A stretch of DNA of 33,898 bases from an uncultured Pirellulales bacterium (GCA_964399795.1 CAYNTC010000001.1:1-33898), one strand, 5' to 3'; positions 8,101 to 33,003 are shown, numbered from the stretch's first letter. Notes: generated by a model from the sequence alone, not told the origin. Made by a program: numbers and translations.

Positions 8101-8341
8101 AATGACAGAGGGCAGACCCAATATCGTTGACTGGATAATAAACAGCAAGATCGATCTGATAATAAATACAACTATCGGCAAGCAATCAATCGTGGATTCT
8201 TTTTCAATAAGAAGAAACGCTATAGAAAGGCAGATACCATACGTGACGACAATAAGGGGCGCAGCCGCCGTGGTTAAAGCTATCGATGCAATAAGTCAGA
8301 GAAAAATTAGTGTGAAGCCTTTACAGTCATACTATCAGTAG
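5132..8341 (+). CDS. carB: Carbamoyl-phosphate synthase large subunit
   Basis: [30 protein letters not shown] is repeated in the second half as [21 protein letters not shown], the known internal duplication of ATP-grasp halves. Also present: [32 protein letters not shown] and a C-terminal MGS-like domain. Confidence 0.97.
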
Positions 8342-8355
8342 CGGAAATTGTAGAA

Positions 8356-9486
8356 ATGAAAGCTATTTTGTTATTGGAAGACGGTACTATATTTGAAGGC
8401 AGAGCTTTTGGTTCGAAGGGCCAGGAGTGTGGGGAAGTAGTATTTAACACCAGTATGACAGGCTATCAGGAAATATTAACCGATCCTTCATACCATGAGC
8501 AGATAATCACAATGACTTACCCTCTCATCGGCAACTACGGCACAAATCAGGAGGACGCCGAATCAGGAAGAATTTACGCAAAAGGCCTTGTTGTTAAGGA
8601 GAACTGCAATTACCCGAGCAGCTGGAGAGGCGGTCAGACGTTGGATGACTATCTAAAGAGAAACAATATGGTTGGCCTTGAGGGTATTGATACTCGAATG
8701 CTTGTACGCCATATTCGCATCAAGGGAGCGATGAGGGGGATAATCTCTTCAGCGGAATTAAATACAAAAAGACTTGCTGAGAAGCTAAGTGAATATCCCG
8801 GCCTTGTAGGGCGAGACATCGTAAGCAACGTGACGGTTGATAAACCTTATCCTTGGAAAGAAGGGTTGATTGACAGAATCGGCGACCTCGCCCAAAGGAG
8901 GCAAGATAAAAAGCCTGTCGCCAAATTCAAAGTTGTCGCTTTTGACTTTGGCATTAAGCGCAACATTCTCAGGCTCCTTTGTGCTCATGGCTGTGACGTA
9001 AGGGTGGTGCCTGCTCAAACATCTGCGAAGAAAGTGCTCTCCTATAAGCCTGACGGAGTGTTCCTTAGCAATGGTCCGGGTGACCCCGCGGCAGCTACCT
9101 ATGCGGTCGATACAGTAAAAACGCTTCTGGGCAAAGTACCTATATTCGGGATATGTCTCGGTCATCAGCTTCTGGCTCTTGCTTTGGGAGGAAAGACTTA
9201 TAAACTAAAGTTTGGCCATAGGGGCGCTAACCATCCGGTGAAGAACTTAAAAACCGGTAAAATCGAAATCACCTGCCAGAATCACGGTTTCTGTGTCGAT
9301 CTAAATTCTTTAAAAGACAAGGATGTTCAGCTTACGCACCTGAATCTGAATGATAATACGCTCGAGGGCATTCATTGCGAGAAGCTGTCTGCTTTTTCGG
9401 TTCAGTATCATCCCGAGGCGTCACCTGGCCCCCACGACTCAAACTATCTCTTTGAGACCTTCGTAGAGTTGATGGCTAAGCCTTAA
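8356..9486 (+). CDS. carA: Carbamoyl-phosphate synthase small (glutamine amidotransferase) subunit
   Basis: MKAILLLEDGTIFEG start, FNTSMTGYQEILTDPSY, catalytic-Cys motif GICLGHQLL, HRGANHPV, QYHPEASPGPHD. It lies 14 nt after carB. Confidence 0.96.
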   Translation: MKAILLLEDGTIFEGRAFGSKGQECGEVVFNTSMTGYQEILTDPSYHEQIITMTYPLIGNYGTNQEDAESGRIYAKGLVVKENCNYPSSWRGGQTLDDYLKRNNMVGLEGIDTRMLVRHIRIKGAMRGIISSAELNTKRLAEKLSEYPGLVGRDIVSNVTVDKPYPWKEGLIDRIGDLAQRRQDKKPVAKFKVVAFDFGIKRNILRLLCAHGCDVRVVPAQTSAKKVLSYKPDGVFLSNGPGDPAAATYAVDTVKTLLGKVPIFGICLGHQLLALALGGKTYKLKFGHRGANHPVKNLKTGKIEITCQNHGFCVDLNSLKDKDVQLTHLNLNDNTLEGIHCEKLSAFSVQYHPEASPGPHDSNYLFETFVELMAKP

Positions 9487-19973: not shown

Positions 19974-21389
19974 ATGTTGGTTGATAAAGATATAAAAGAC
20001 GGCGTCAAGCAAAAGCCCAAGCAGTTGTATCAAGCAGTTGAATCAATCGGTCATGCGCCGCAAACAAGCGAAGAATATCACAAAGCGACACTCGATGTTC
20101 TACAACAGTCAGACATTGACGTTTATCGCTTAATCACACAAGAGTATGAACGACTGCAAAACAGCTTACAACTTATTGCGGCAGAGAATCTATGCTCACG
20201 AGCGGTCCTGGCAGCCCTTGGGTCTGTTGTACAAAACAAAACAACGGAGGGCTTTGTCGGGGCGAGGTGGCATGGCGGCTGTGAGGTTGTCGACCGCATA
20301 GAAATCCTGGCTGTTGAACGGGCTTGCCAAGCCTTTGGCGCACAATATGCAAACGTCCAGCCGCATTCGGGCAGCACAGCCAATCAAATCGTTTTCAAGG
20401 CCTTGCTCAAACCTGGCGATACGATTTTGAGTCTCGATGCTGGCCACGGAGGACATCCGTCACACGGCGGCGGCGATTCGCTTGCTCGGGAGATTTACAG
20501 GGTGGAATCTTACGGCGTCGAGCCGACGAGTTTTGTCTTTGACTATGAAAAAATCCTCGCAAAGGCCAAAGAGATTCAGCCCAGGCTCATTATGTGTGGT
20601 GCAAGCGCTTATCCGCGTATAATCGACTTCAAGAGGTTCCGTATTATCGCTGACGAGGTCGGCGCATATCTGCTGGCCGATATTTCTCACATTGCAGGCC
20701 AAGTGATATCTGGTGTTCATCCATCATCGATAAACGTTGCTCATGTCACTACTACCAGCACGTACAAGGCTGGCGGGCCTCGCGGCGGGCTGATACTTTC
20801 AGGAAATGATTATCAAATGCCAATTGAAACCGCATCCGGCAAGATCCCGCTTTCCGAAGCGTTGAACAGATCAACTTTTCCTGGATTACAGGGGACGCCA
20901 TATTTCAATAACATCGCGGCCAAGGCGGTATTTTTCAAGGAGACTTTGTCAGATACTTACCGGCAAAGGCAGTTAAAGGTCGTCGAAAACGCCAAAGTGC
21001 TGGCTCATAATCTAATCGCCAGCGGTTTTGACGTTCTTACCGGCGGCACGGATAATCACATGATTCTTGTTGATATTTGTCGCTCAGAGCCTGGCTTGAA
21101 TGGCATTATCGCCCAAAGAGTGTTTGAAGACTGTGGCATCGTTACGGATTCTTATCGCTTGCCTTATCAACGGCTCGACATACCACCTGGGGGTTTGCGT
21201 CTGGGCACGCCCATTGTCACGGTACGCCGAATGGGAGCAGAGCAGATGAAAACTATCGCTGCTTTTGCAAAGGCAGTGCTCGGGAATGTGCAAGCCACCG
21301 GCCCGGACAGTTTTGAAATAAACGCTTCTGTAACAGCACAAATTAAACAACAGGTAGCCCACTTCTGTAATGAGTTTCCGCTGGGTTAA
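19974..21389 (+). CDS. glyA: Serine hydroxymethyltransferase-family PLP enzyme, divergent
   Basis: Colinear with SHMT: LIAAENLCSRAV, GGCEVVD, ANVQPHSGSTANQ, GHGGHPSHGG, ADISHIAGQV, TTTSTYKAGGPRGGLIL, GGTDNHMILVD, GLRLGTP. GAGG lies 7 nt upstream of the ATG. See the findings for the non-canonical active-site residues. Confidence 0.85.
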   Translation: MLVDKDIKDGVKQKPKQLYQAVESIGHAPQTSEEYHKATLDVLQQSDIDVYRLITQEYERLQNSLQLIAAENLCSRAVLAALGSVVQNKTTEGFVGARWHGGCEVVDRIEILAVERACQAFGAQYANVQPHSGSTANQIVFKALLKPGDTILSLDAGHGGHPSHGGGDSLAREIYRVESYGVEPTSFVFDYEKILAKAKEIQPRLIMCGASAYPRIIDFKRFRIIADEVGAYLLADISHIAGQVISGVHPSSINVAHVTTTSTYKAGGPRGGLILSGNDYQMPIETASGKIPLSEALNRSTFPGLQGTPYFNNIAAKAVFFKETLSDTYRQRQLKVVENAKVLAHNLIASGFDVLTGGTDNHMILVDICRSEPGLNGIIAQRVFEDCGIVTDSYRLPYQRLDIPPGGLRLGTPIVTVRRMGAEQMKTIAAFAKAVLGNVQATGPDSFEINASVTAQIKQQVAHFCNEFPLG

Positions 21390-21585
21390 GAATTTTCGCT
21401 GCCCGATTGTGACACGGCGGGTAACACCCGAATTCGTCAAGAGTTTTTTGCCATCTCTGGGTCAATGCCCAACCGATTTGATAAACAGTCCCTACGGCTG
21501 CCAGAACAATTCCGTTTGAGAAAACAATTGTGGAAAATAACAAAACGGTGAGGCCGGCCACGCTATATTTGGTTATGGTTTTCAT
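21343..21585 (-). CDS. Possible small membrane protein (hypothetical)
   Basis: The N-terminal 40 aa are strongly hydrophobic (YSVAGLTVLLFSTIVFSNGIVLAAVGTVYQIGWAL). There is no SD, no recognisable family, and its 3' 47 nt overlap the convergent glyA-like gene. Weak call. Confidence 0.25.
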   Translation of the reverse strand: MKTITKYSVAGLTVLLFSTIVFSNGIVLAAVGTVYQIGWALTQRWQKTLDEFGCYPPCHNRAAKILNPAETHYRSGLPVV

Positions 21586-21648
21586 GAGTGTAAACTATCT
21601 TGTGCCGGAATTGGTGATTGATAGCAGAGTTTTCCTGATAATAGACTA

Positions 21649-21677
21649 TTGTCAAATCAGCAGAGAAATGCTATACT
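21649..21677 (+). promoter_or_regulatory. Sigma70-like promoter with extended -10, upstream of the nucleotidyltransferase-PLP fusion gene
   Basis: TTGTCA (21649..21654), a 17-nt spacer ending in TGc, then TATACT (21672..21677). This would give a ~345-nt leader to ATG 22029. Confidence 0.35.
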
Positions 21678-22028
21678 TCGCGGAAAACCCCGATAAGATA
21701 GACAGGATTTCATGGTCGGGCGAGCTATAATAAGAGGTTGCTGTAAGAGCAGGACCAAATGGTGAGCTGCGATGTGAAAAATATTAAATTGTAGAGTGTG
21801 GACGCGCTTAAACCCGGCCGTCTAAACTGCTGCGGATACGACCGGGTCGAAACCAGAGGAATAGACGAAGTTGCTGTAGATGGTGCTGTATTTGGACGTT
21901 ATATAGGCATTTTCTGGATTATCCGGTTTGTTAGATGGCGGTAATTAGAACCATAAGACATAACAGCAGACGGTTAGAAGCAAGTATCCCGGCTTTTATT
22001 GCAGCCGCAGTGTACAAGAGACGATAAT

Positions 22029-23900
22029 ATGCAAGCAGTGATCTTGGCAGCAGGCAGAGGAAACAGACTACGGCCAATCACCGACGAGAAACCCAAATGT
22101 CTTGTCGAAGTAAATGGAATCCCTTTGCTTATCAACGCTCTGGAAGCGTTAACGAAACGACCGGAAATAAAAGAGGTAATAATTGTCATCGGATATAAGG
22201 GAGAATTGATAGAACAGAGAGTCGGCCGAAAATACAATGAGACGGATGTAACTTATGTCACCAATAAAGACTGGAACACGACAAACAATATTTACTCATT
22301 GTGGCTGGCGATGGACAAAATCAAAGAGGACTTTTTACTGTTGGAAGGAGATATCTTTTTCGAGCATAGTATCTTGGACTTTGCATTTAGGACGAGAGAC
22401 AAGAATATAGTGTTCCTGTCGAAGTACCACTCGAGCATGTCGGGAACGGTAGTTGAGATTGGAGAGAGGGGCAGCAAGATAGCCTCCGGTACCTTGGTTG
22501 AAGCAGAGGACAGGGGCACGGCGATAAAAAGGTTGATTTCAGGCAGTGAACAGGGCCTGGATTTCGACTACTCTGACAAATTTAAGACCGTAAACATTTA
22601 CTACCTCAACTACGATTTCTTCGAGAAATACTTTCGGCCAAATCTGGACCTCTATATCAAAACACATGGCTCCGGCAGCTATTATGAGTTAATTCTCGGC
22701 TTACTCATTTATTTAAACACGCCTGACATTTATGGCTGCGTTGTGGATAACAAGAAATGGTATGAAATCGACACCGAGAACGACTTGGATATGGCCGATT
22801 ATCTATTTTCCAAAGGGGAAAAGGCGGATAAGCTTGCGAATTTGTACGGTGGTTATTGGCGATTCGATTTTCTGGACTTCTGTTTCTTGTTCAATCTTTA
22901 CTTCCCGCCTCAACATCTATATTCAAAACTGGGGTACGAATTGCCGCTGCTGATTAACAATTATCCCTCTGCTCAAAGCAGAATAGCCAGCCTTCTGTCG
23001 CAGTGGTACGCCGAAGAAGGTTTTGACAAGGAAAACATACTTGTGGGGAACGGAGCTTCAGAATTCATTAGAATCTTTAATAGGCATTTTGTGAAGACCG
23101 TAACCATACCGGTTCCCACTTTCAACGAATACGAAGACCTTGACCCTTCACAAGTCAACCTTGTCCAACTGCGGGAAGACAATGGATTTTCCCTGAATGC
23201 GGATGAGTTTATCAGTTCCGTTATTGAGTCAAACAGCAACTTCGCGGTTTTACTCAATCCAAACAACCCAACTTCGACGGTGACAGAAAGGGAGGATATT
23301 GTAAAAATATTAGAGAATCTGAAGCATTTAGACGGGGTTGTTGTTGACGAGTCATTCATAGATTTCACTGGGGACAGGGGACGATATTCGGTCCAGCCCT
23401 TAATAACCCGGTATTCAAACTTAATCGTATTAAGAAGCCTCAGTAAGGAATTCGGTATTCCAGGACTAAGGCTGGGATACGTTCTCTCTTCGAATGAGGA
23501 ATTTAGAAAGAAAGTGCGGAAATATCTGCCAATATGGAATATTAACTCGATTGCGGAACGGTTCATAGAACTATTTCCGAGGTACCAGAAGGAGTATGAA
23601 CAATCTATAAGACGGATAATGGACGACAGAGAAAACTTTTATCGCCAGCTAAGTGACACGGAAATATTGGAGCCCACCGACAGCAAGGCCAACTTTATTT
23701 TCTGTAAAGTGGTAAGCGACGGTATCGACAGTACAGAGCTAAGAAACAGACTTTTCACGGCTCATAATATTTTAATAAAGGATTGCTCTAATAAAACATC
23801 ACTGGGGAATAAATTCGTAAGAATAGCAGTACGAAGACAGGAAGAAAATAACTTGCTGGTCGAAGCATTGAGGCAAATCAAGCACGATATAGGTGGATGA
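22029..23900 (+). CDS. Bifunctional fusion: LicC-like (phospho-alcohol) nucleotidyltransferase plus CobD/HisC-like class I/II PLP enzyme (probable phospho-amino-acid decarboxylase)
   Basis: N-terminal domain: MQAVILAAGRGNRLRPITDEKPKCLV, NNIYSLWLA, LLEGDIFF, WYEIDTENDL. C-terminal domain: ILVGNGASE, LLNPNNPTS, VVVDESFIDF, VLRSLSKEFGIPGLRLGY (PLP Lys), VRIAVRRQEENNLLVEAL. The start is re-set from the track's TTG 21999 to ATG 22029, so that the Gly-rich loop sits at the N-terminus. Confidence 0.85.
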   Translation: MQAVILAAGRGNRLRPITDEKPKCLVEVNGIPLLINALEALTKRPEIKEVIIVIGYKGELIEQRVGRKYNETDVTYVTNKDWNTTNNIYSLWLAMDKIKEDFLLLEGDIFFEHSILDFAFRTRDKNIVFLSKYHSSMSGTVVEIGERGSKIASGTLVEAEDRGTAIKRLISGSEQGLDFDYSDKFKTVNIYYLNYDFFEKYFRPNLDLYIKTHGSGSYYELILGLLIYLNTPDIYGCVVDNKKWYEIDTENDLDMADYLFSKGEKADKLANLYGGYWRFDFLDFCFLFNLYFPPQHLYSKLGYELPLLINNYPSAQSRIASLLSQWYAEEGFDKENILVGNGASEFIRIFNRHFVKTVTIPVPTFNEYEDLDPSQVNLVQLREDNGFSLNADEFISSVIESNSNFAVLLNPNNPTSTVTEREDIVKILENLKHLDGVVVDESFIDFTGDRGRYSVQPLITRYSNLIVLRSLSKEFGIPGLRLGYVLSSNEEFRKKVRKYLPIWNINSIAERFIELFPRYQKEYEQSIRRIMDDRENFYRQLSDTEILEPTDSKANFIFCKVVSDGIDSTELRNRLFTAHNILIKDCSNKTSLGNKFVRIAVRRQEENNLLVEALRQIKHDIGG

Positions 23901-23901
23901 C

Positions 23902-25155
23902 ATGAAAAAAGAAAACCTTATATTAGTGACGATGGATGCTGTTAGGCCGGACAGGCTCAGTTGCTACGGATATGGAAAGATAAAAACGAAAGGTATTGAC
24001 TCTATAGCTGCTGAAGGGGTGCTTTTCAAGAACGGTATTGCCACCTCTTGTTTAACGCCGGTCGCCTGTGCTTCCATACTTTCCGGCAAATGCCCTGATA
24101 AAACTAAACTCAGAGACCCTTTTGGCGTGGTCGAAACGACGATAATCTCAGAGATGCTCAACCAGTATGGATATAAGACGGCGGGGTTCGTCGGTGTAGA
24201 CTTAATAGATTCGCGGCACCATTTCCACAAAGGTTTTGATTTATTCGATGAGCCCACTGAGGCAGACAGTTTTCACACAATGTGGTTCAGGGGGGACAAA
24301 AAAGAGCTTAAGGCCACGTTGGGGAGCTGGTGGATTGACAGAATGTTCAAATGGCTAAAAGATAACGCCAATGAAAATTTCTTCATCTGGTGCCACTATT
24401 TCCATGTGCACTTTCTGGCGGAGAAGGAACTACTCTACTCGGGAAAACTCAATAGTGACGAGTTGTCTGATTATGCGTATTATGACGCTAAAGTAAAGTA
24501 CATGGACGAACAGTTGTTTCAGCCTCTGGTTGATACTCTGAAAGATTTGGACATTTGGCATAATACCACCGTGGTGGTTACAAGCGACCACGGAGAAACT
24601 TTGGGGACGAAACAGCCTACCTGGAAAACTTTTTACATCGAATACCCGCAACATAAGACGATGTACGAGGCTGACTTAAAGGTGCCGCTGATAATCAAGA
24701 ATAGCAATTTGCAGAGCATGAAGATAGACCATACTGTCAGATCCATAGACATAGTGCCAACTCTTGTTGACTTACTGGATATTCCGACCGCTGAGACATT
24801 TGATGGCATAACTTTAACACCGCTGTTCAAAGGACAGAAATTGCCGGAACCGATCGCTTACTGTGAAGAATTATTTGAGAACAGAGGTGCCGGTTCCCTA
24901 CAAGCTGTTCGAACAGTATGCTATAAGTTGATACGTAACCTTACGAGAAACAAGCTGGAATTCTACAACTTGCAGAAGGATGCTGAAGAAAAACAGAATA
25001 TTATAGAAACATGTTCCCCAAAGGAAAAAGAAACCGCTCAGCAATTCGAGAAAATCATGGACAAGCTTCTTGCCGGTTATGTGGCTGGTTCAGTTCTTAG
25101 CAAGGAAGATAAAAAGCAAGTGGAAGAAAGGCTGCGCTCTCTGGGTTATATATAA
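23902..25155 (+). CDS. Sulfatase-family (alkaline-phosphatase superfamily) enzyme, no signal peptide or TM, non-canonical nucleophile motif
   Basis: LVTMDAVRPDRLSCYGYGKIKTKGIDSIAAEGVLFKN is colinear with sulfatase N-termini (D..lgcYG...i.TPnlD.LAaeGv.F.n), and VVVTSDHGETLG is present. The ATG at 23902 is 2 nt after the stop of the fusion gene, with AGGTGG 5 nt upstream, which indicates translational coupling. The track's GTG at 23893 is less likely. Confidence 0.8.
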   Translation: MKKENLILVTMDAVRPDRLSCYGYGKIKTKGIDSIAAEGVLFKNGIATSCLTPVACASILSGKCPDKTKLRDPFGVVETTIISEMLNQYGYKTAGFVGVDLIDSRHHFHKGFDLFDEPTEADSFHTMWFRGDKKELKATLGSWWIDRMFKWLKDNANENFFIWCHYFHVHFLAEKELLYSGKLNSDELSDYAYYDAKVKYMDEQLFQPLVDTLKDLDIWHNTTVVVTSDHGETLGTKQPTWKTFYIEYPQHKTMYEADLKVPLIIKNSNLQSMKIDHTVRSIDIVPTLVDLLDIPTAETFDGITLTPLFKGQKLPEPIAYCEELFENRGAGSLQAVRTVCYKLIRNLTRNKLEFYNLQKDAEEKQNIIETCSPKEKETAQQFEKIMDKLLAGYVAGSVLSKEDKKQVEERLRSLGYI

Positions 25156-25276
25156 AACCCCCAACTTTTCTTGAGAACTCGTGTTCAAAACCGGAAACCG
25201 GGCATCTGTTTCTGGAGGACGAAAGCCGAACACGGGCGGATGTTTCTCGCAGCCCCATGTCAGCTAAGCATCTATT

Positions 25277-26278
25277 TTAGGCGGTGCTTTTTTTCTGTTT
25301 AGTCAGCCAATAAAGCTGACAGGCAGCCCCGACAAGGGCCATGAAGACCAACCTCGAGAACAAAATCATCGACATCAATAAGGCAGCCGATTTCTCAACC
25401 CCATATAAAGACAAAAGACTCACCAGCAAGGATTCTCTTATGCCAAGATTTGCAATCGACATGGGGACCCGTCCCAAAACATAAACCAAAGCAGCGAGCC
25501 AAACAAATACACCAATAGGCGCGACCAAGTTCGCTCCTTTGGCAGAAAGAACATACACAACGATGCCCATAACCGGTGTTGCGATTATCGTAATAACCGT
25601 CACGAGCAGGTGAAAGCTTGCGCCGGCTGTCTGGAATATCCCCACCTGTTCAAGAATCTCTTCACCTTTTTGACGCATTTTCGAGGGAAACGGTCGGATC
25701 AAGACCTTAAGTGCTGCAACTATCTTGCTGCCAATCTGCCTGTTCAGTAACAGAAAACAAGCAATGATTATTGCTGTCGCGACAGCTCCGCAGATAGCCG
25801 GCAAAAGCCAGCTTCTCTTTATTCCGGCTAAAGATGTCGGGTTACTAACCACCAACGCAACCAGGCCGAAAATACCCATAACGATGATTGTTAATAACTG
25901 GTTGTATACCAGTGCGCTGAAGACATTAGTCCCTTTACCAGTATCTTTTTTTAGAATGTACCATTTTACTCCGGTGCTAAGCAGGCCTGGCATAACCATA
26001 CTGTAAAGTGAAGTCACTGCACTTGCACAGAACACCGTACCGACGCTCACGATACAGTTCTGTCGCCTTAGAATGAATTGCATCTTGATTGAGCGTATCC
26101 AGAAACGGATTAGAGTCGTCACCCAGACCGCCAAAAGAAATTCCCATCTCGCGGTCTTGGCAGCTAGCCAAAATTCCTTAAAGTCTATTTGGCTAAAAAC
26201 CCAGAGCAGCAAACCAGAAGTGATTACTATCCTGAAAGCAAGCTTGATGATTTTCACGTTTTTATTCGAGGATTCCAC
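25277..26278 (-). CDS. Lysylphosphatidylglycerol-synthase-TM-like / 'flippase-like domain' (UPF0104) integral membrane protein
   Basis: About 8 TM segments. The N-terminus KIIKLAFRIVITSGLLLWVFSQIDFKEFWLAAKTARWEFLLA has the pattern I associate with the TIGR00374/UPF0104 family. GTG start with AGGA 7 nt upstream. It is the last gene of the minus-strand string. Confidence 0.7.
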   Translation of the reverse strand: MESSNKNVKIIKLAFRIVITSGLLLWVFSQIDFKEFWLAAKTARWEFLLAVWVTTLIRFWIRSIKMQFILRRQNCIVSVGTVFCASAVTSLYSMVMPGLLSTGVKWYILKKDTGKGTNVFSALVYNQLLTIIVMGIFGLVALVVSNPTSLAGIKRSWLLPAICGAVATAIIIACFLLLNRQIGSKIVAALKVLIRPFPSKMRQKGEEILEQVGIFQTAGASFHLLVTVITIIATPVMGIVVYVLSAKGANLVAPIGVFVWLAALVYVLGRVPMSIANLGIRESLLVSLLSLYGVEKSAALLMSMILFSRLVFMALVGAACQLYWLTKQKKSTA

Positions 26279-26318: not shown

Positions 26319-27542
26319 CTAGACGATACTCTTAACAAAATCCATTATTCTTTGGCGAGCACAACTATCCTGATACTTGAAGCGCAGATTTTTGACAAAC
26401 AGTCTTTCTTTGGCAAAGTAATTCTTGTCATTGAGCAACTTAATAAGCTGCGTCTTGAAATCCTTGAAGCTGTTTACCTTTGGCCCGGGCGTTACACTAT
26501 CGTAGTCGAACAGAAATCCGGCCTCAGACTCGTATTTCTCCAAATCATATGGTATGAACATAAGTGGCTTATCCGTCAACAGGAAATCAAGAAATACAGT
26601 GGAGTAGTCGGTTATCAAAAGGCTGCACTTGTTAAACAGGGTGTTTACGTCAGTGAGTCTGTCATGATTAATGATTTGTACGTTCTTAAGGCGAGCAAAT
26701 TCGTCCGGTTTCCAATGCCTGTTGTAGAGTTTTCTGGCTTTTGAAACTGTAGTTGCACGATGCCCCCTGAGTATGAACAACATATTGTTTTTTACAAGAA
26801 ATTCCTCCAGCTCAGACGAGTCAAAATCGTCAAAAGGGAAAAATCTTGGAGGCTCGCTGTGTCTAAAAGTCGGAGCATAAAGAACAACCGACTTGTAACT
26901 GTCAAAATCCGCAAGACTTTCCTCAAGAACATCCTGGTTTACGATGTCATTCCTTGGTATGCCGGTAACAATTACCCGCTCAACTGGCAAATTGAAGCTC
27001 TTGGAGAGCAGGAACTTCTCAACTGTCGAAGAGGCCAGCAGATAGCTAACTTTCTTCTTGTGGAAAAATCTGGCAAGAGAAAACGCCAAATGACGCCTTG
27101 TCTTGCGGCACTGGCCAACTCTCTTCCAGTGCAGTCCGTGCCAAAGATTAATAATGAGATGTCTTTTCGTTAAAAAGTAGTAGACATCAGTTATATGGTC
27201 GGATACAAAAACAACCTTCGCCCTTAATATCGTCCAGCACCCTTGTAATGACTTCGCATATATCACATTCTCCGGGAATCTACGTTTCAATTCTAAATAT
27301 AATTGCTTGTTCGCGGTCACCCAGTAGTGTTTAATCTGAGGCTCATTTTTAAGAGCATACTCAAACATAAAACGGCTGTTTTCTCCGTATAGGTCACCTG
27401 CAAACGCGCCATATAGGAAGATGTTTTTTTTCTTTGGTACAAGCCAGTCCAGAAGAAGCAAAGGTACTAACCTCGCAAACTCTGTCCTGACAAGCCGCAG
27501 CAAAGCTTTTAATTCAACCTTCATGTTCAACTGTGCGGACAT
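26319..27542 (-). CDS. TagB/TagF-family CDP-alcohol (glycerol/ribitol-type) phosphotransferase
   Basis: PF04464-type signatures: NLWHGLHWK (catalytic His region), VTGIPRNDIV, VLYAPTFRH, LLITDYSTVFLDFLLTDKPLMFIPYDLEKY. Confidence 0.85.
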   Translation of the reverse strand: MSAQLNMKVELKALLRLVRTEFARLVPLLLLDWLVPKKKNIFLYGAFAGDLYGENSRFMFEYALKNEPQIKHYWVTANKQLYLELKRRFPENVIYAKSLQGCWTILRAKVVFVSDHITDVYYFLTKRHLIINLWHGLHWKRVGQCRKTRRHLAFSLARFFHKKKVSYLLASSTVEKFLLSKSFNLPVERVIVTGIPRNDIVNQDVLEESLADFDSYKSVVLYAPTFRHSEPPRFFPFDDFDSSELEEFLVKNNMLFILRGHRATTVSKARKLYNRHWKPDEFARLKNVQIINHDRLTDVNTLFNKCSLLITDYSTVFLDFLLTDKPLMFIPYDLEKYESEAGFLFDYDSVTPGPKVNSFKDFKTQLIKLLNDKNYFAKERLFVKNLRFKYQDSCARQRIMDFVKSIV

Positions 27543-27599: not shown

Positions 27600-28853
27600 C
27601 TACTCTAGGCAAAGTAATCTTTTGAACAATCTTTCACATGATTTGCCGTCCTGAAATTTGTTGAATTTATTCTTAAACCGTTGGTAGTTCGCGGTGTATG
27701 CATCATCATGTGACCAAATGTCAACATTTTTCATCAAAGCCATCAATTCACTCGGCTTATAAGCAAACGGACCGGGCATTTCTCGGTCATAGTCTTCAAA
27801 CATTCCCTCAGGGGCTTTGTATACATCACGGTCGTACGGGAAAAAAATAATAGGATTGTTTGTAAGGGTGAAATCGAAAACCACGCTCGAGTAATCACTG
27901 ATTAGCACGTCGACACAGATTAACATTTCCTGTATGTCCTGGCTGCTCTCAGATACATCTATAATATTAGTGAACCCGCCAAGGCCTGTTATTTTATCGG
28001 CATAAGGATGCTGCTTTATCAGTAGAACATGGTTTTCTTTGATAAGCCACCTGTCAAGTTCGCTGAGAAATCTCTCGTCGAACGGATTTACCGTTTCACC
28101 AATCTTACGAAATGTAGGAGCGTACAAAAACACTTTCTTGTAGTTTGACAGCCTGAACCTGTTGGAAATGTCCTCACAGCTAAATAACTCCGGCCGGAAA
28201 AGAATGTCATTCCTTGGAGACCCAACCTCCAAAATCAGTGCATTGGTGAAAAGTTTCCTGAACACCTCGGTTGTATGATTGCATGATGACAACGCACAAA
28301 AGAATTTCTTCATCTCTATTCTTTTTATTCTCTTCCATAGTTCACGACGCCTGGAATGGACATTCTTGAAAGGTGTTGCGTGCCAACACTGGATTATCTT
28401 GAAACGGCCGATGAGAAACGACGCATTTGGATTAAGGAAGTTGTTGTTATCGACAAAGAGATATTTGGCCCTTAGCATATACCAGAACGCCCTCAGGCCT
28501 TTTGTCGGCTTTATTCCCAAACCTGCAATTTGGCCGAAGAGCTTTTTATTTGGTACATGAAAAATGCTGACAAAATCGTCAAGTCTCTTAGCCGCGTATA
28601 TCGCCAGGTACTTCGGGCACTCTTTAAATTGAAAGTCTATTTCGTTCATCCAAATGGGAAAGTTATAATTCCCTACAGAGCTGAAGAACAGTATTCTTTT
28701 ACTTTTGGGAACCACATAGCTGAGTGGAAAAAGCAAAAGTTTGAGCAAGGCGTTGCGAGCCAGGACAACGACGATCAGGAACAGGCCGATTGACCTGGCC
28801 ACTTTGTTTTTGCCCAGTAACTTGCTGTTTAAAATCGCATAGTTTTTAAGCAT
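27600..28853 (-). CDS. TagB/TagF-family CDP-alcohol phosphotransferase, second divergent paralogue
   Basis: IQCWHATPFK, EVGSPRNDILF, FLYAPTFRK, VLISDYSSVVFDFTLTNNPIIFFPYDRDVY, plus an N-terminal hydrophobic anchor SIGLFLIVVVLARNALLKLLLFPL. Confidence 0.85.
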   Translation of the reverse strand: MLKNYAILNSKLLGKNKVARSIGLFLIVVVLARNALLKLLLFPLSYVVPKSKRILFFSSVGNYNFPIWMNEIDFQFKECPKYLAIYAAKRLDDFVSIFHVPNKKLFGQIAGLGIKPTKGLRAFWYMLRAKYLFVDNNNFLNPNASFLIGRFKIIQCWHATPFKNVHSRRRELWKRIKRIEMKKFFCALSSCNHTTEVFRKLFTNALILEVGSPRNDILFRPELFSCEDISNRFRLSNYKKVFLYAPTFRKIGETVNPFDERFLSELDRWLIKENHVLLIKQHPYADKITGLGGFTNIIDVSESSQDIQEMLICVDVLISDYSSVVFDFTLTNNPIIFFPYDRDVYKAPEGMFEDYDREMPGPFAYKPSELMALMKNVDIWSHDDAYTANYQRFKNKFNKFQDGKSCERLFKRLLCLE

Positions 28854-28926: not shown

Positions 28927-30069
28927 TTAGCTGATTCTAATCCTATGCGAAGTCTGAAGAAGATTGGCATATAGCTCAAGGTATCGCTGCGTAATATTAG
29001 TCCAGCTATATTTCTGCACCCGTTCCAAGGCCTTTTCTGACAGACGACGTCGCAATTTTTCAGAAGCGACCAAGCTCTCAAGATTCTTTTCTATTCCGCT
29101 TACATCTCGTGGTTCAACCGTCAGCGCCGCATCACCTACCACCTCAGTGCAGCCCCCGGCGGTACTCGTGATTATCGCCGTTCCTGCGGCCATCGCTTCT
29201 AATAAAACCGTGGGGAAGTTTTCAGCTTCAGATGGAAAAATGAAAATGGCGCTTTTTTTGAACAATTCGTAAAACTGTGGGTCGGCTTTCCCAAGCCAGC
29301 CCCAGAATTTGACCGGGGTTTTCGAGCCCTCTGCAAGGCGTTTCAATTCAGCGAGATACGGTCCTTCGCCGACGACATTTACCTGCCAATCCAGTCTTAT
29401 ATTTCTTATAGCCTCGATAGCATACTGGAAGCCTTTTCGTCGCATGATTCGGCTGCACATAAGTATTTCGTTTTTTTTGACATCAGGTTTGTACGGCTCC
29501 GGATATATTCCGTTGGTCACCACCTCAAGGTTGGCTTTTTCGCAATGTTTCAAAATCAACTCCTTGAGCGATTCGCTCGGCGATGTCAGCAGCGGAGTTC
29601 GACGGACTAAAAAACGCCATGCGGGCAACAGCAATTTGTGTATCGTCTTGAAACGGTCAGGATTATACCCCGGTACATCTGTGCCGTGACAGGTGATCAA
29701 GAAAGGGGTACTTGTCAATTTGCTTATTATCCAGGCTAATAGACCGCCGGGGATAATAAAATGACAATGTACAATGTCATATTTTTTGCGGCGTGCCAGG
29801 TACAGCGTCTTTATAAGCGCCCCCGGGACATATGTTGCCAGTTCGTGAGTATGGCAGATATTCGGCCTTTTACGAAGCGCAGGTGTCCTGTAGATGTTGA
29901 CGCCCTCTACGGTCTCAAACCGCGGCAGGTTATCGTAGTGCATCGTTACCACATCGACGTGATGTCCCTTGCATACAAGGTGTCTGCTTAGTTCAAAGCT
30001 GACCGGTGCGGCGCCGCCTCCTACAGGTGGAAACTCATGATTAAGCATCAGTATCTTAAGTGTAGTCAC
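28927..30069 (-). CDS. GT4-family (GT-B, retaining) glycosyltransferase
   Basis: KILMLNHEFPPVGGGAA N-terminus and the EX7E region FIFPSEAENFPTVLLEAMAAGTAIITS. GTG start at 30069; an ATG alternative lies 7 codons in. Confidence 0.88.
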   Translation of the reverse strand: MTTLKILMLNHEFPPVGGGAAPVSFELSRHLVCKGHHVDVVTMHYDNLPRFETVEGVNIYRTPALRKRPNICHTHELATYVPGALIKTLYLARRKKYDIVHCHFIIPGGLLAWIISKLTSTPFLITCHGTDVPGYNPDRFKTIHKLLLPAWRFLVRRTPLLTSPSESLKELILKHCEKANLEVVTNGIYPEPYKPDVKKNEILMCSRIMRRKGFQYAIEAIRNIRLDWQVNVVGEGPYLAELKRLAEGSKTPVKFWGWLGKADPQFYELFKKSAIFIFPSEAENFPTVLLEAMAAGTAIITSTAGGCTEVVGDAALTVEPRDVSGIEKNLESLVASEKLRRRLSEKALERVQKYSWTNITQRYLELYANLLQTSHRIRIS

Positions 30070-30077
30070 AATTGTAG

Positions 30078-31976
30078 CTACCCTGAATCACTCAAGCTGG
30101 TTTTACGTTCAAACAACACATGCTCGCCGAACATCGAAACGATTCGATAATTCGTCATCACGAATTCCCTAAAGGGTTTCAGAACCCTGTAACGCTCAGC
30201 TTCATCCTCGCCAAAGTTATCCGCCAGCAACTTGGCCCATTCACGGTCGTACAAATTAATGGCCTCTTTATTTAGCGGCAGGAATGTTCTTTCCTTCAAG
30301 CCCATAAACCCCTTCGGCACTATTGGCCATAACTCATAGGGCGGCCTCTCCGTAGGGATGTGTCGCTTCCGCGAGTCAACGATGAACTTGGGCCTCTCAC
30401 TTTGGAACTCTGCCAGGAGCTGCTCGACTGTCTGGGCCAGCCGCGCTGGCGCAGGCCGGGGCATACAGAACGCCTTTGAAGCCGAACTGAACCGCTGGGC
30501 CTGGACATATATGCCCGGGTACCATCCCCAGACGTAAATTTTGTCGTTCGGTTCTGAATGGTTTCTGATATATTCACCTGCAACTTCCCAAGGACCTTTG
30601 AGGTTTCTTTGTCGTCGCAGTGAGATTTCCCGATACTTTTGAACATAACCGCGATTTCTACTGCCATAATTAACGCCTGAGTGCGGGCTTGTTTTTATCC
30701 CCGCAAATATATGCCAGGACATGATTAGCATGACCAGTAAAGCCCCGATTCCGGCTGCCGACCAGGTCCGTTTATTGCCACCGCTGAGTTTTCGCTGGTA
30801 TAATGTCACTATATACCCACCAAGCATTGCAGCAGATGCGTTTAGCGGCAGGTAGTATTGTTCATAGGAGCGCGGGCTAATCCACACGAAAGCCATATCC
30901 AGCAGCCACCATATCGCTAATAGCAATACGAACCGGTCGTATGAGACTGTCATAACCTTGCTGGCCTTGCGCCTTCGTAGTGCACCACGCACAATTCTTA
31001 CGACTATGGCGCAGACCGCCAGAGATATTGGTAATATAAGTTTGCTGTAGTATCGCAGGACGATGGGCCATTGCTCTGAAAAAGGCACAATTTTTCGGCT
31101 TCGACCAATATAGTCCGAGGCTGTTTTTGCCTGATCTATAGTGGATTTTGCCGGGACGAATTTCGCTAATGTTTGCCACACGAACATGTAAGGAAGATTC
31201 AATTGTACTTTCCAAGCCAGTATCCATATATAAAGTGGCGCAAGTGCCGCTATTGACCCTGCCAGCAGAAGCGCGATATCAAAGCCTGTTTGCCTGAAGG
31301 TCTTGTTCTTCAATACTGGTTGTAGCACGACAAATAGGCCCACTGCTCCGATAGCTGAAACTCCTGTTGGTTTAAAAAGCGGCGCCCAAATCAGAAACAC
31401 GCCGGCCAACATTGCCTGCCACCATTTGCTGTCGAGTTGGTACAAAATGAAACAGCTAATCCCTATCACCATGCAGGCGATCATATACTGTTCTTTGACG
31501 TTACCGAACTTAGCAATCAGCGGCGCAGAAAGATACACTGATGCAACGATGACCCCTACGGCAGCAGCTAATGCACCAAAGAGCCTTCGCATTGCCACGA
31601 ACATGAGCACTAACGCCGCTGCTTGAAGGATCATCTGGATTAACTTAGCCCCTGTTTCATTGAAACCAAATAGCCAAACACCCAACATGTTGACCAGTAG
31701 TGTTCCCAGCCGAGCACTTGGCTTTTCTTCAACGCCGATTTTTGCGCCAGATAGTATATGCGCAGAAGAGTAGACGTATGCGCCGCTATCGAATGGGCCG
31801 GGAGAGTTGAACTCAAAGTATTTACCAAGAGAAAAAGGAATGCCCGCCAGAATGACTATCACCACAAGAGCAAAAATGTGCATTTGCTTTCGGCTTTTAG
31901 GTCGAGTCGTGATATGAGTATCATGCGGTGCTGCCTTTTTGTGTGGAGGTTTCTTTTGTCGGCTGGGCTTGCTCAT
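30078..31976 (-). CDS. GT-C fold, ArnT/PMT (GT39/GT83)-like polyprenyl-phosphate-sugar-dependent glycosyltransferase with a C-terminal soluble domain
   Basis: About 11-13 TM segments. The first extracytoplasmic loop has FDSGAYVYSS (the Asp-containing motif position of GT-C enzymes). The C-terminal ~200-aa domain has IYVWGWYPGIYVQAQRFSSASK, typical of PMT_2-type proteins. Its start overlaps the upstream GT2 stop as ATGA. Confidence 0.75.
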   Translation of the reverse strand: MSKPSRQKKPPHKKAAPHDTHITTRPKSRKQMHIFALVVIVILAGIPFSLGKYFEFNSPGPFDSGAYVYSSAHILSGAKIGVEEKPSARLGTLLVNMLGVWLFGFNETGAKLIQMILQAAALVLMFVAMRRLFGALAAAVGVIVASVYLSAPLIAKFGNVKEQYMIACMVIGISCFILYQLDSKWWQAMLAGVFLIWAPLFKPTGVSAIGAVGLFVVLQPVLKNKTFRQTGFDIALLLAGSIAALAPLYIWILAWKVQLNLPYMFVWQTLAKFVPAKSTIDQAKTASDYIGRSRKIVPFSEQWPIVLRYYSKLILPISLAVCAIVVRIVRGALRRRKASKVMTVSYDRFVLLLAIWWLLDMAFVWISPRSYEQYYLPLNASAAMLGGYIVTLYQRKLSGGNKRTWSAAGIGALLVMLIMSWHIFAGIKTSPHSGVNYGSRNRGYVQKYREISLRRQRNLKGPWEVAGEYIRNHSEPNDKIYVWGWYPGIYVQAQRFSSASKAFCMPRPAPARLAQTVEQLLAEFQSERPKFIVDSRKRHIPTERPPYELWPIVPKGFMGLKERTFLPLNKEAINLYDREWAKLLADNFGEDEAERYRVLKPFREFVMTNYRIVSMFGEHVLFERKTSLSDSG

Positions 31977-32971
31977 CCCTTATCCCCACGATCCTTAATC
32001 GATTCGAGTATTTCCTTTATCACATACGTAGGGCGGTTCTGTGACTCATGGTATGTTCGCACTAAAAGCTCCGCAAGCAATCCCATTAGTACGAACTGAA
32101 TTGTAGCCGTGATCAACAGCGCAGTCAGGACTAATAGTGGATTCCTGTTCATAGACAGATGCGAAGGAGAGATAAACTTTTGATAGAGTACTACAAGGCC
32201 CGATGTCACAGCCACAAGTGCACTTGCTGCTCCTAAACCGCCAAAGATGTAGATCGGCTTAGTTGAAAACGAACCTAAGAATTTGACCGTGATAAGGTCT
32301 AGTATTACCTTGAGTGTCCGTCCCAGACCGTATTTTGGCGCGCCCGAGGTTCTGTGTCTGTGGTTTACCTCGATCTCAACGATCCTGGCACCGCTCCAGC
32401 TTGCCAGCGCTGGTATGAAGCGGTGCATTTCACCGTACAATTTCGTCTCGGCTAAGACCTCTCGACGATATGCTTTGAGCGTGCAACCAAAGTCATGCAG
32501 CCGGACACCTGTAATTCTGGCAATCAGCCAATTGGCGATTTTAGATGGTACAATCCTTGTTATGAGTTTGTCGTGTCGATTTTTTCGCCAGCCACTAACA
32601 ACATCGAATCCCTCATTAAGTTTAGTGAGCATCTTAGGTATATCTGCCGGGTCGTTCTGCAGATCAGCGTCGATCGCAACGATGATTTCGCCCCGCGCGT
32701 GCTCGAAGCCGGCACTAAGTGCGGCTGTTTGGCCAAAGTTCTTACGGAAGCGGATTATCCGGATTCTTGCATCCTTCTTTTGCAACTGGCTCAGTATCTC
32801 GAAACTATTGTCTGTGCAACCATCGTCAACGAATACTATTTCGTAATCATATTTATCGGCCAGGGTTTGTGTGATCTGCTCATGGAGTGGACCGAGATTG
32901 TCCTGCTCATTCAGAACCGGTACCACTACGGAAACCTCACAATGCGTATGCTTAGTATCTTTTTTGGCCAT
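31973..32971 (-). CDS. GT2 polyprenyl-phosphate glycosyltransferase (GtrB/ArnC/DPM1-like)
   Basis: VSVVVPVLNEQDNL, VFVDDGCTDNS, AIDADLQNDP, and two C-terminal TMs with PIYIFGGLG and LMGLLAELLVRTYHESQNRPTYVI, the hallmark of this family. The start is re-set from the track's GTG 32992 to ATG 32971 (MAKKD), which has GGAG 6 nt upstream. Confidence 0.88.
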   Translation of the reverse strand: MAKKDTKHTHCEVSVVVPVLNEQDNLGPLHEQITQTLADKYDYEIVFVDDGCTDNSFEILSQLQKKDARIRIIRFRKNFGQTAALSAGFEHARGEIIVAIDADLQNDPADIPKMLTKLNEGFDVVSGWRKNRHDKLITRIVPSKIANWLIARITGVRLHDFGCTLKAYRREVLAETKLYGEMHRFIPALASWSGARIVEIEVNHRHRTSGAPKYGLGRTLKVILDLITVKFLGSFSTKPIYIFGGLGAASALVAVTSGLVVLYQKFISPSHLSMNRNPLLVLTALLITATIQFVLMGLLAELLVRTYHESQNRPTYVIKEILESIKDRGDKG

Positions 32972-33003
32972 ACTTTGCTCCGTATGTATCACTTTGTCGC
33001 ACT

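Follow-up and report, generated by a model that had tools for sequence, protein, structure and literature searches.

Within a 33,898-nucleotide stretch of DNA from an uncultured Pirellulales bacterium (GCA_964399795.1 CAYNTC010000001.1:1-33898, the window in what follows), a single gene on the plus strand (22029-23900) fuses a LicC/PntC-like nucleotidyltransferase to a CobD/SMUL_1544-like enzyme dependent on pyridoxal phosphate (PLP). From homology and gene neighbourhood, we propose that this fusion is a putative phosphoserine decarboxylase and CTP:phosphoethanolamine cytidylyltransferase making CDP-ethanolamine, and we put the probability of this reading at roughly 0.62. Going by its relatives, the PLP domain would decarboxylate O-phospho-L-serine (Ser-P), an intermediate of serine biosynthesis, to phosphoethanolamine, and the LicC/PntC-like domain would convert phosphoethanolamine and CTP into CDP-ethanolamine and pyrophosphate. 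The gene neighbourhood suggests a third step, in which cytoplasmic CDP-alcohol phosphotransferases would move phosphoethanolamine onto a glycan or lipid. The candidates for this step in the window are two TagF-like enzymes, and the protein co-translated with the fusion (the partner, below) may be supplied as well. The glycoconjugate would be built and exported by the products of a convergent operon, namely glycosyltransferases (GTs) of the GT2, GT-C and GT4 types and a flippase-like protein. We infer both the order of these steps and the acceptor.

An initial annotation, made from the sequence alone, had described a protein of 623 amino acids (aa) joining an N-terminal nucleotidyltransferase to a C-terminal fold-type-I PLP domain, and this is what ORF calling, Pfam and homologs give at 22029-23900. 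The enclosing open reading frame (ORF) spans 21999-23900 (+), and the 623-aa product starts at an internal ATG at 22029. We favour this ATG because the homologs (more than 100 full-length sequences) all open with a common N-terminus, MQA[VI]ILAAG. Every motif quoted in that annotation is located in the translation: AAGRGNRLRP (aa 7-16), KPKCLV (21-26), NNIYSLWLA (86-94), LEGDIFF (105-111) and WYEIDTENDL (244-253) in the N-terminal half, and GNGASE (340-345), NPNNPTS (410-416), DESFIDF (440-446), RSLSKEFGIPGLRLGY (469-484) and RIAVRRQEEN (598-607) in the C-terminal half. The Pfam domains include the ones it had named, with NTP_transferase (1.2e-11) and NTP_transf_3 (7.8e-11) at aa 1-125 and Aminotran_1_2 (9.1e-31) at aa 313-614; IspD (1.1e-6) matches at aa 1-125 as well. 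The assignments of both halves are far beyond chance.

The substrate prediction draws on the C-terminal half (aa 273-623; 22845-23900, +), a fold-type-I PLP domain by PDB match, motif table and bootstrapped tree. Its key residues are Y273-G274-G275, GNGASE, D440-E-S-F443, the Schiff-base K473, R481, W503 (IWNIN), K584 and R598. The fold-type-I site is complete, with a Schiff-base Lys, an Asp to the pyridine nitrogen and an Arg to the PLP phosphate; K473 (SLSK), D440 (DESF) and R481 (GLRLG) align with CobD K216, D185 and R224 and are invariant in the fusions. Among solved structures, a PDB search puts 6oux first (1.7e-40), before Salmonella CobD and every HisC structure. 6oux is 100% identical to a Sulfurospirillum protein (SMUL_1544) that NCBI names "norcobamide biosynthesis serine-O-phosphate decarboxylase", and the PLP half scores 142 bits against this Ser-P enzyme versus 101 bits against Salmonella CobD. 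In norcobamides, an ethanolamine linker replaces aminopropanol (PMC6759758). Against NCBIfam, the PLP half reaches 188.8 bits with the CobD model TIGR01140 (cut-off 290.55) and 170.3 bits with the hisC model TIGR01141 (cut-off 276.55); because both scores fall under the curated equivalog cut-offs, it forms a separate subfamily. The fusion thus lies outside TIGR01140 cobamide CobD, and CbiB, CobQ and other cobamide genes are absent from its neighbours.

We aligned 101 PLP-domain sequences, which include deposited CobD, E. coli HisC and 51 fusion sequences. All aligned fusions have residues on the decarboxylase side, namely DESF (DEAY in HisC) and IWNIN (PYNV in HisC), along with an N-terminal [H/Y/F]GG of variable first residue, where the discriminating residues are drawn from the few references in the alignment and not from a published rule. 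W503 and DESF are found in 51/51 fusions, none of which has the HisC Asp of G.G.DE; the Glu is kept in 50 of them, and the other one (P0055) has DNGASA. In a neighbour-joining tree of the PLP domains with 100 bootstraps, from which Cj1436 and Cj1437 were left out, the fusions are monophyletic (100%) and sister to SMUL_1544 (6oux) plus one stand-alone Desulfobacteraceae protein (100%). CobD, 3fkd and 3ftb stand next to this group (56%), and HisC forms a separate clade. We therefore rejected an identity as HisC, given the score below cut-off, the differing motifs and the separate clade. The likeness to CobD that the initial annotation proposed agrees with these motifs and with the tree, which places the domain by SMUL_1544 and then CobD. 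That annotation had also named clustering with HisC or with cobamide CobD, in a matching genomic context, as the outcome that would speak against it. The domain instead groups outside both, as sister to the Ser-P decarboxylase, and no cobamide or histidine genes accompany the fusion.

The N-terminal half (aa 1-270; 22029-22838, +) was characterized by PDB sequence search, structure model, Foldseek and alignments. Its key residues are G9xG11xR13, K23, T85-N86-N87, E106/D108 (LEGD), E220 and W244/E246/D248, and within the signature ILAAGRGNRL (aa 5-14) plus K23, the residues G9, G11, R13, L14 and K23 do not vary across 28 sequences. By sequence, the PDB matches are LicC (1jyk, 5.1e-14), PntC (6pd1, 1.5e-9) and MurU (1.2e-8). 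An AlphaFold (AF2) model of aa 1-270 has a mean confidence (pLDDT) of 88.6, and a Foldseek search with it returns PntC-AEPT at all of ranks 1-5 (top 6pd2, E-value 1.2e-16, TMq up to 0.75); inositol-1-phosphate cytidylyltransferase and LicC also rank high, with GMPPB and MurU at about 1e-14. This modelled fold match supports a LicC/PntC assignment, as support and not as proof. PntC-AEPT is itself a fusion (Treponema denticola Tde1415, PDB 6pd1/6pd2) that makes CMP-2-aminoethylphosphonate, and its Glu104 and Glu196 bind the primary amine of 2-aminoethylphosphonate (AEP), both positions being Asp in LicC (Rice et al. 2019, PMC6697681). E106 of our fusion aligns with Glu104 (LEGD vs. LESD), and E220 (YYE) is probably the counterpart of Glu196 (DYE), going by its spacing to the W.EID motif; both are invariant. 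The segment WYEID..DL likewise matches YEID of LicC and WREID of PntC. The top NCBIfam matches (AglF, archaeal GlmU and MurU types, aa 1-143) cover only the shared nucleotide-binding half. The preference of the initial annotation for the LicC/PntC group over sugar-1-phosphate enzymes thus stands, with LicC nearest by sequence, PntC-AEPT nearest by fold, and a modest margin.

Gene neighbourhood is a source of evidence on what happens to the product. Around the fusion in 34 non-redundant loci, we called ORFs out to 10 kb, grouped them into clusters with no labels set beforehand, and then annotated the clusters that recurred; as controls, we used 42 loci having only stand-alone CobD/HisC-type relatives. 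LicD is found in 17/34 fusion loci, TagF-like genes in 7/34 and CDP-alcohol phosphatidyltransferases (CDP-OH_P_transf) in 7/34. One or more of the three are present in 27/34 fusion loci versus 1/42 controls (Fisher p = 4.6e-13), a comparison whose search profiles derive from members in the fusion loci themselves. CDP-alcohols are the donors for all three families. The co-occurrence with TagF anticipated by the initial annotation is therefore found as one part of a wider link to CDP-alcohol transferases. For a LicD-family enzyme, phosphoethanolamine transfer from CDP-ethanolamine has been shown (PMC11982090). A LicD-fused variant of our enzyme is a physical link to a CDP-alcohol transferase. 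In a split form (locus L097), a single operon runs from a nucleotidyltransferase (41% identical to the N-terminal domain, E-value 9e-29) through CDP-OH_P_transf and a PLP enzyme (50% identical) to a TagF-like gene.

The partner gene provides another line of evidence. The fusion TGA (23898-23900) is followed, after a gap of 1 nucleotide, by the ATG of a 417-aa protein of the alkaline phosphatase superfamily with the "sulfatase" fold (23902-25155, +; Pfam Sulfatase 6.5e-37), and an AGGTGG Shine-Dalgarno sequence lies inside the last codons of the fusion. When aligned with true sulfatases, the partner has Thr52 at the position of the formylglycine Cys, and both the Pro and the Arg of CxPxR are gone. 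The Thr is invariant in 118/118 partner homologs, the metal-site SDHG is retained, and the Arg of CxPxR becomes His, Met or Cys. We therefore take the partner to be a Thr-nucleophile member of the superfamily and not a sulfatase, and on this sequence pattern its family is a distinct, widespread and mis-annotated subfamily, in which some members (P0172, P0175) are fused to an HD domain. The partner adjoins the fusion in three further loci, downstream in L094 and L095 and upstream in L004. In L096, a locus from Thermoplasmatota, the AEP pathway is complete (Ppm-NT, Ppd, PntC-like nucleotidyltransferase, AEPT), and the gene right after it is an ortholog of the partner with 64% identity. A partner that serves either the CMP-AEP route or the fusion is the strongest independent hint that the fusion product is the phosphate analogue, CDP-ethanolamine. 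The partner probably acts on the aminoethyl-phosph(on)ate unit, as transferase or hydrolase.

A more speculative proposal goes further, and we offer it as a tentative one that we would not bet on. The fusion and the partner could be a self-contained cytoplasmic two-gene system, in which the fusion would make CDP-ethanolamine from phosphoserine and the partner would be a soluble phospho(no)ethanolamine transferase of a new class, working through a covalent Thr intermediate on a CMP-linked donor (CDP-ethanolamine or CMP-AEP). The bacterial phosphoethanolamine transferases we know of (EptA, BcsG, OpgE) are membrane enzymes acting on the periplasmic side with phosphatidylethanolamine as donor. In a bolder variant still, the product would be CDP-serinol, and the two TagF-like enzymes would build a zwitterionic poly(serinol phosphate).

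Several points weigh against CDP-ethanolamine as the product. In the Foldseek search, PntC and LicC are ahead of the sugar-1-phosphate enzymes by only 1-2 orders of magnitude in E-value, and the use of CTP is assumed from homology only. A distinct PLP subfamily below the CobD and HisC cut-offs could differ in specificity. In the HGG motif, GG is invariant, and the residue before it varies between H, Y and F across fusions (Y273 in the window); Lys584 sits at the position of CobD Arg323, which is Lys in the fusions. Because Cj1437, a dihydroxyacetone phosphate (DHAP) transaminase of the same superfamily, is missing from the tree, the phylogeny allows for transamination; in a search with SMUL_1544, C. 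jejuni proteins are not found among the best 120 matches. TagF enzymes classically take CDP-glycerol or CDP-ribitol, and since phosphoethanolamine cannot be polymerised, a diol such as serinol would be the better match for a pair of TagF-like genes. Finally, the recurrent sulfotransferase genes and genes for the synthesis of 3′-phosphoadenosine 5′-phosphosulfate (PAPS) next to homologs are unaccounted for by this pathway.

Three products had been entertained in the initial annotation, CDP-ethanolamine, CDP-aminopropanol and CDP-serinol. The evidence narrows them towards CDP-ethanolamine, and the other two remain as the serious residual rivals, CDP-serinol by Cj1437-type transamination and CDP-aminopropanol from threonine phosphate. 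In the serinol case, DHAP and glutamate would give (S)-serinol phosphate, the reaction that Cj1437 of the same HisC/CobD superfamily performs according to the summary in PMC11800397; cytidylylation would follow, and the two TagF-like enzymes would then either prime and polymerise a poly(serinol phosphate) or attach units of serinol phosphate. In favour of this rival, TagF enzymes classically use glycerol phosphate, of which serinol phosphate is the 2-amino analogue, two TagF-like genes are in the window, and the SMUL_1544-like clade also holds glycan-cluster enzymes whose reaction type is unassigned. However, the decarboxylase-type residues are common to the fusions, CobD and SMUL_1544, and the grouping with a Ser-P decarboxylase has 100% bootstrap; the partner is shared with the AEP pathway, the N-terminal domain retains the PntC-type Glu pair, and the commonest neighbour is LicD and not TagF (17/34 vs. 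7/34). We consider a CDP-serinol synthase unlikely. A CDP-aminopropanol synthase, which we deem quite unlikely, would decarboxylate L-threonine-O-3-phosphate (Thr-P) as CobD does and cytidylylate the resulting (R)-1-amino-2-propanol phosphate. The best NCBIfam model is CobD (TIGR01140), the motifs are of CobD type, and CobD comes next after SMUL_1544 in the tree; yet the Ser-P enzyme is closer (142 vs. 101 bits, 100% bootstrap), the score is below the CobD cut-off, and the parallel with the AEP pathway favours a two-carbon unit. Thr-P also needs a dedicated kinase of PduX type, and we do not see one among the recurrent neighbours of the fusion loci.

Two further alternatives are less likely. 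Unrelated steps of glycan-precursor synthesis, by a sugar-1-phosphate nucleotidyltransferase and a sugar or amino-acid aminotransferase, would agree with the AglF, archaeal GlmU and MurU matches at aa 1-143, with the sugar-1-phosphate enzymes close behind in the fold search, and with the glycan-cluster context. We find such an amino-sugar nucleotide enzyme very improbable, as those matches are limited to the nucleotide-binding half and the whole domain is best matched by LicC (sequence) and PntC (fold), WYEID..DL matches LicC/PntC, and the enrichment among neighbours is for CDP-alcohol transferases. Sugar aminotransferases are, moreover, typically of DegT type and not of CobD/HisC type. A cobamide nucleotide-loop enzyme, combining CobD with a CobY-like NTP:adenosylcobinamide-phosphate nucleotidyltransferase, is suggested by JGI names of several homologs (".../GTP:adenosylcobinamide-phosphate guanylyltransferase"), by the CobD-like PLP domain and by CobY being a MobA-like NTP transferase. 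This one is scarcely credible and we rejected it: the fusion is found in CPR (candidate phyla radiation) bacteria and DPANN archaea with glycan and lipid genes as neighbours, and whereas the control CobD-like genes adjoin CbiB/CobQ, no cobamide-gene homolog of any of their 75 neighbours turns up in the 34 fusion loci.

Returning to CDP-ethanolamine as the predicted product, the closest known parallel is PntC-AEPT, in which an N-terminal LicC-like cytidylyltransferase is also followed by a C-terminal PLP enzyme supplying a 2-aminoethyl-P substrate for activation by CTP. PntC-AEPT is the best fold match of the N-terminal domain, its amine-binding Glu104 (and probably Glu196) is kept, and the two fusions are co-located in one locus (L023) and have the Thr-type partner family in common. 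The differences are in the C-terminal domain, which is class I/II (Aminotran_1_2) and a predicted decarboxylase in our fusion versus a class V transaminase (Aminotran_5) in PntC-AEPT, and in the chemistry, where a phosphate ester would go from phosphoserine through phosphoethanolamine to CDP-ethanolamine and a phosphonate goes from phosphoenolpyruvate (PEP) through AEP to CMP-AEP. By analogy, the fusion may be seen as a phosphate-ester counterpart of PntC-AEPT in logic, not a member. Locus L023 (10001-19949, Treponema sp. WQSW01000001.1) carries the fusion, then a fusion of CTP_transf_like with PEP mutase (Ppm), then the PntC-AEPT fusion, all inside ~6 kb, so that phosphate and phosphonate head-group routes are found in one cluster. 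Also present are a divergent TagF-like gene and the gene for a membrane protein of 886 aa whose N-terminal domain is YidC/60KD_IMP.

For the PLP half, the nearest characterised relatives are SMUL_1544 (6oux) and Salmonella CobD (1lc5), with which it shares DE(S/A)F, the Trp of (P/L/I)W.(V/I)N, the Schiff-base Lys and the phosphate-binding Arg. Both are stand-alone enzymes in cobamide operons that feed CbiB, whereas the fusion is without cobamide context. LicC, the CTP:phosphocholine cytidylyltransferase of S. pneumoniae (1jyk), has the signature, TNN and EID motifs in common with the N-terminal half and fills the role foreseen for it, as maker of the donor for LicD. LicC depends on imported choline and the LicA kinase, unlike the fusion, which would make its own substrate. 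Besides its two Asp contacts, where the fusion has Glu, LicC has an aromatic box for the quaternary amine (PMC6697681). In the C. jejuni capsule, Cj1436 and Cj1437 (Riegert et al. 2021, as summarised in PMC11800397) make ethanolamine-P from Ser-P and serinol-P from DHAP, and as PLP enzymes of the same superfamily they also provide an amino-alcohol phosphate for glycan decoration. There, in the account given by that summary, an ATP-dependent ligase joins the amino-alcohol phosphate to glucuronate through an amide bond, the phosphate is removed afterwards, and the route involves no nucleotide activation (PMC11800397). The predicted product is also that of the eukaryotic Kennedy pathway (ethanolamine kinase, PCYT2, EPT/CEPT), where CDP-ethanolamine serves CDP-alcohol phosphotransferases. 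PCYT2 belongs to another fold (CTP_transf_like) and receives phosphoethanolamine derived from free ethanolamine and not from phosphoserine decarboxylation.

The fusion family is widespread and apparently unstudied. An exhaustive search finds 897 representative clusters (50% identity) at E-values of at most 1e-30, the best 150 of which are mostly full-length fusions of ~600 aa. Named sources are Planctomycetota, Cloacimonadota, Elusimicrobiota, CPR bacteria, and DPANN and Asgard archaea, to which species-representative genomes add Bacteroidales, Clostridia and Treponema; cultured carriers include Mogibacterium timidum ATCC 33093 and Hoylesella timonensis DSM 22865. Among named homologs, the closest comes from a Planctomycetota metagenome-assembled genome (MAG), and homologs are annotated generically ("aminotransferase"). 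A full-text literature search, within the searchable library, returned no description of the fusion. Multi-domain variants add an S-adenosylmethionine (SAM) methyltransferase (five clusters), LicD, a GT4 glycosyltransferase or a GNAT acetyltransferase, and in a Muribaculaceae MAG (L035, 10001-12841), Octopine_DH is fused to the enzyme in a 946-aa protein. The fused tailoring domains are amine-modifying types. For the fused methyltransferase, a PDB search gives PMT (5wp4) among the top matches at 8e-7, alongside unrelated SAM methyltransferases.

If the proposed function is true, prokaryotes would gain a de novo, cytoplasmic, nucleotide-activated phosphoethanolamine donor made from phosphoserine. 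To our knowledge, the bacterial routes are choline import (the Lic pathway) or phosphoethanolamine taken from membrane phosphatidylethanolamine outside the cytoplasm. When phosphoethanolamine and phosphocholine decorate surface glycans, they influence charge, immune recognition and resistance to antimicrobial peptides. The proposal would explain the supply for many LicD, TagF-like and small CDP-alcohol phosphotransferases in organisms without an obvious choline or glycerol-phosphate pathway, such as gut and oral Bacteroidales, Clostridia, Treponema, CPR bacteria, and DPANN and Asgard archaea. Many generically named genes would be re-annotated, and variant pathways would be opened, with methyltransferase (a choline-like product), GNAT, opine dehydrogenase or LicD.

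As to the rest of the window, the convergent operon on the minus strand ends with a flippase-like membrane protein (LPG_synthase_TM, 25277-26278; Pfam 8.1e-28). The initial annotation had pointed to two TagF-family enzymes encoded convergently, and these are the Glyphos_transf genes for proteins of 407 aa (26319-27542, 1.4e-57), a candidate consumer of the product, and 417 aa (27600-28853, 1.5e-62), both TagF-like CDP-alcohol phosphotransferases. The first scores under the NCBIfam TarF/TarL/TarB cut-offs and clusters with TagF-like proteins of other fusion loci. Further along the same strand are a GT4 glycosyltransferase (28927-30069; Glycos_transf_1 and Glyco_transf_4), a PMT_2 membrane glycosyltransferase (GT-C, ArnT-like; 30078-31976, 3.2e-8) and a GT2 glycosyltransferase (31973-32992; Glycos_transf_2, 5.6e-34), probably of the polyprenyl-phosphate type from its length and hydrophobic C-terminus. 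The fusion had also been called the only nucleotide-activating enzyme of the cluster; no other nucleotidyltransferase domain is found in the scanned ORFs of at least 120 aa, a statement that holds for the 34-kb window and not for the genome. Serine hydroxymethyltransferase (19974-21389) was considered as a pathway member and is not supported as one, as it sits among housekeeping genes (dxr, rseP) and no such cluster recurs near homologs. G+C content is 42.5% for the fusion and 43.5% for the partner, versus 47.7% for the upstream housekeeping block (78-21389) and 45.8% for the convergent glycan operon, a lowering that is common for surface-glycan loci and compatible with lateral acquisition. 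A promoter and terminator scan of 21300-25400 gave counts no higher than in shuffled sequence. Just upstream of the fusion, a pseudogene remnant of a sulfatase-fold N-terminus (21777-21893, +) with an in-frame stop has 44% identity to partner aa 7-45 by tblastn (E-value 5e-8) and 50% by BLASTP (2e-12). Since L004 has an intact partner upstream, where the window has this remnant, the partner may have been duplicated or moved in the lineage of the window.

The gene directly downstream of the fusion varies between loci, being Octopine_DH in 8 loci (L016, L018, L019, L021, L024, L027, L029, L038), OCD/mu-crystallin in 5, a sulfotransferase in 2, or the sulfatase-fold partner. Octopine_DH or OCD/mu-crystallin by the fusion suggests reductive N-carboxyalkylation of the amine; the Octopine_DH neighbour recalls the 2-[(1-carboxyethyl)amino]ethyl phosphate groups reportedly present in some O-antigens. 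The sulfotransferase is in L006 (8777-9838) and L011 (4319-7400 and 11877-12893). The operon of the closest homolog (L094, 1-3361) has a PAPS synthase, a CysQ-like gene and a sulfotransferase, CysD/CysN-like genes are in L004 (12706-15462), and L096 adds to the sulfur theme at 1131-1931; we find no sulfotransferase or PAPS-type genes of this kind in the window.

Other relatives of the PLP domain occur in different company. A 614-aa protein (P0397) combines a PLP domain of the same family with a C-terminal Peptidase_C26/class-I glutamine amidotransferase, without a nucleotidyltransferase. The closest stand-alone relative (8024-9220, within 7143-12026 of L042, Desulfobacteraceae MAG JAUVVL010000031.1) has SAM methyltransferases on both sides (n=2) and an aldehyde dehydrogenase after, a cluster that could encode a route of choline or betaine type from phosphoserine through phosphoethanolamine. 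In Aliarcobacter butzleri (L098/L099, 6662-11149), a SMUL_1544-like enzyme, with one PLP paralog only, lies between two CapK-like AMP-ligases and a HAD phosphatase, with two UDP-glucose dehydrogenases alongside. By analogy, the logic of this unfused arrangement resembles the uronamide decoration of C. jejuni Cj1435-Cj1438, with a different ligase family.

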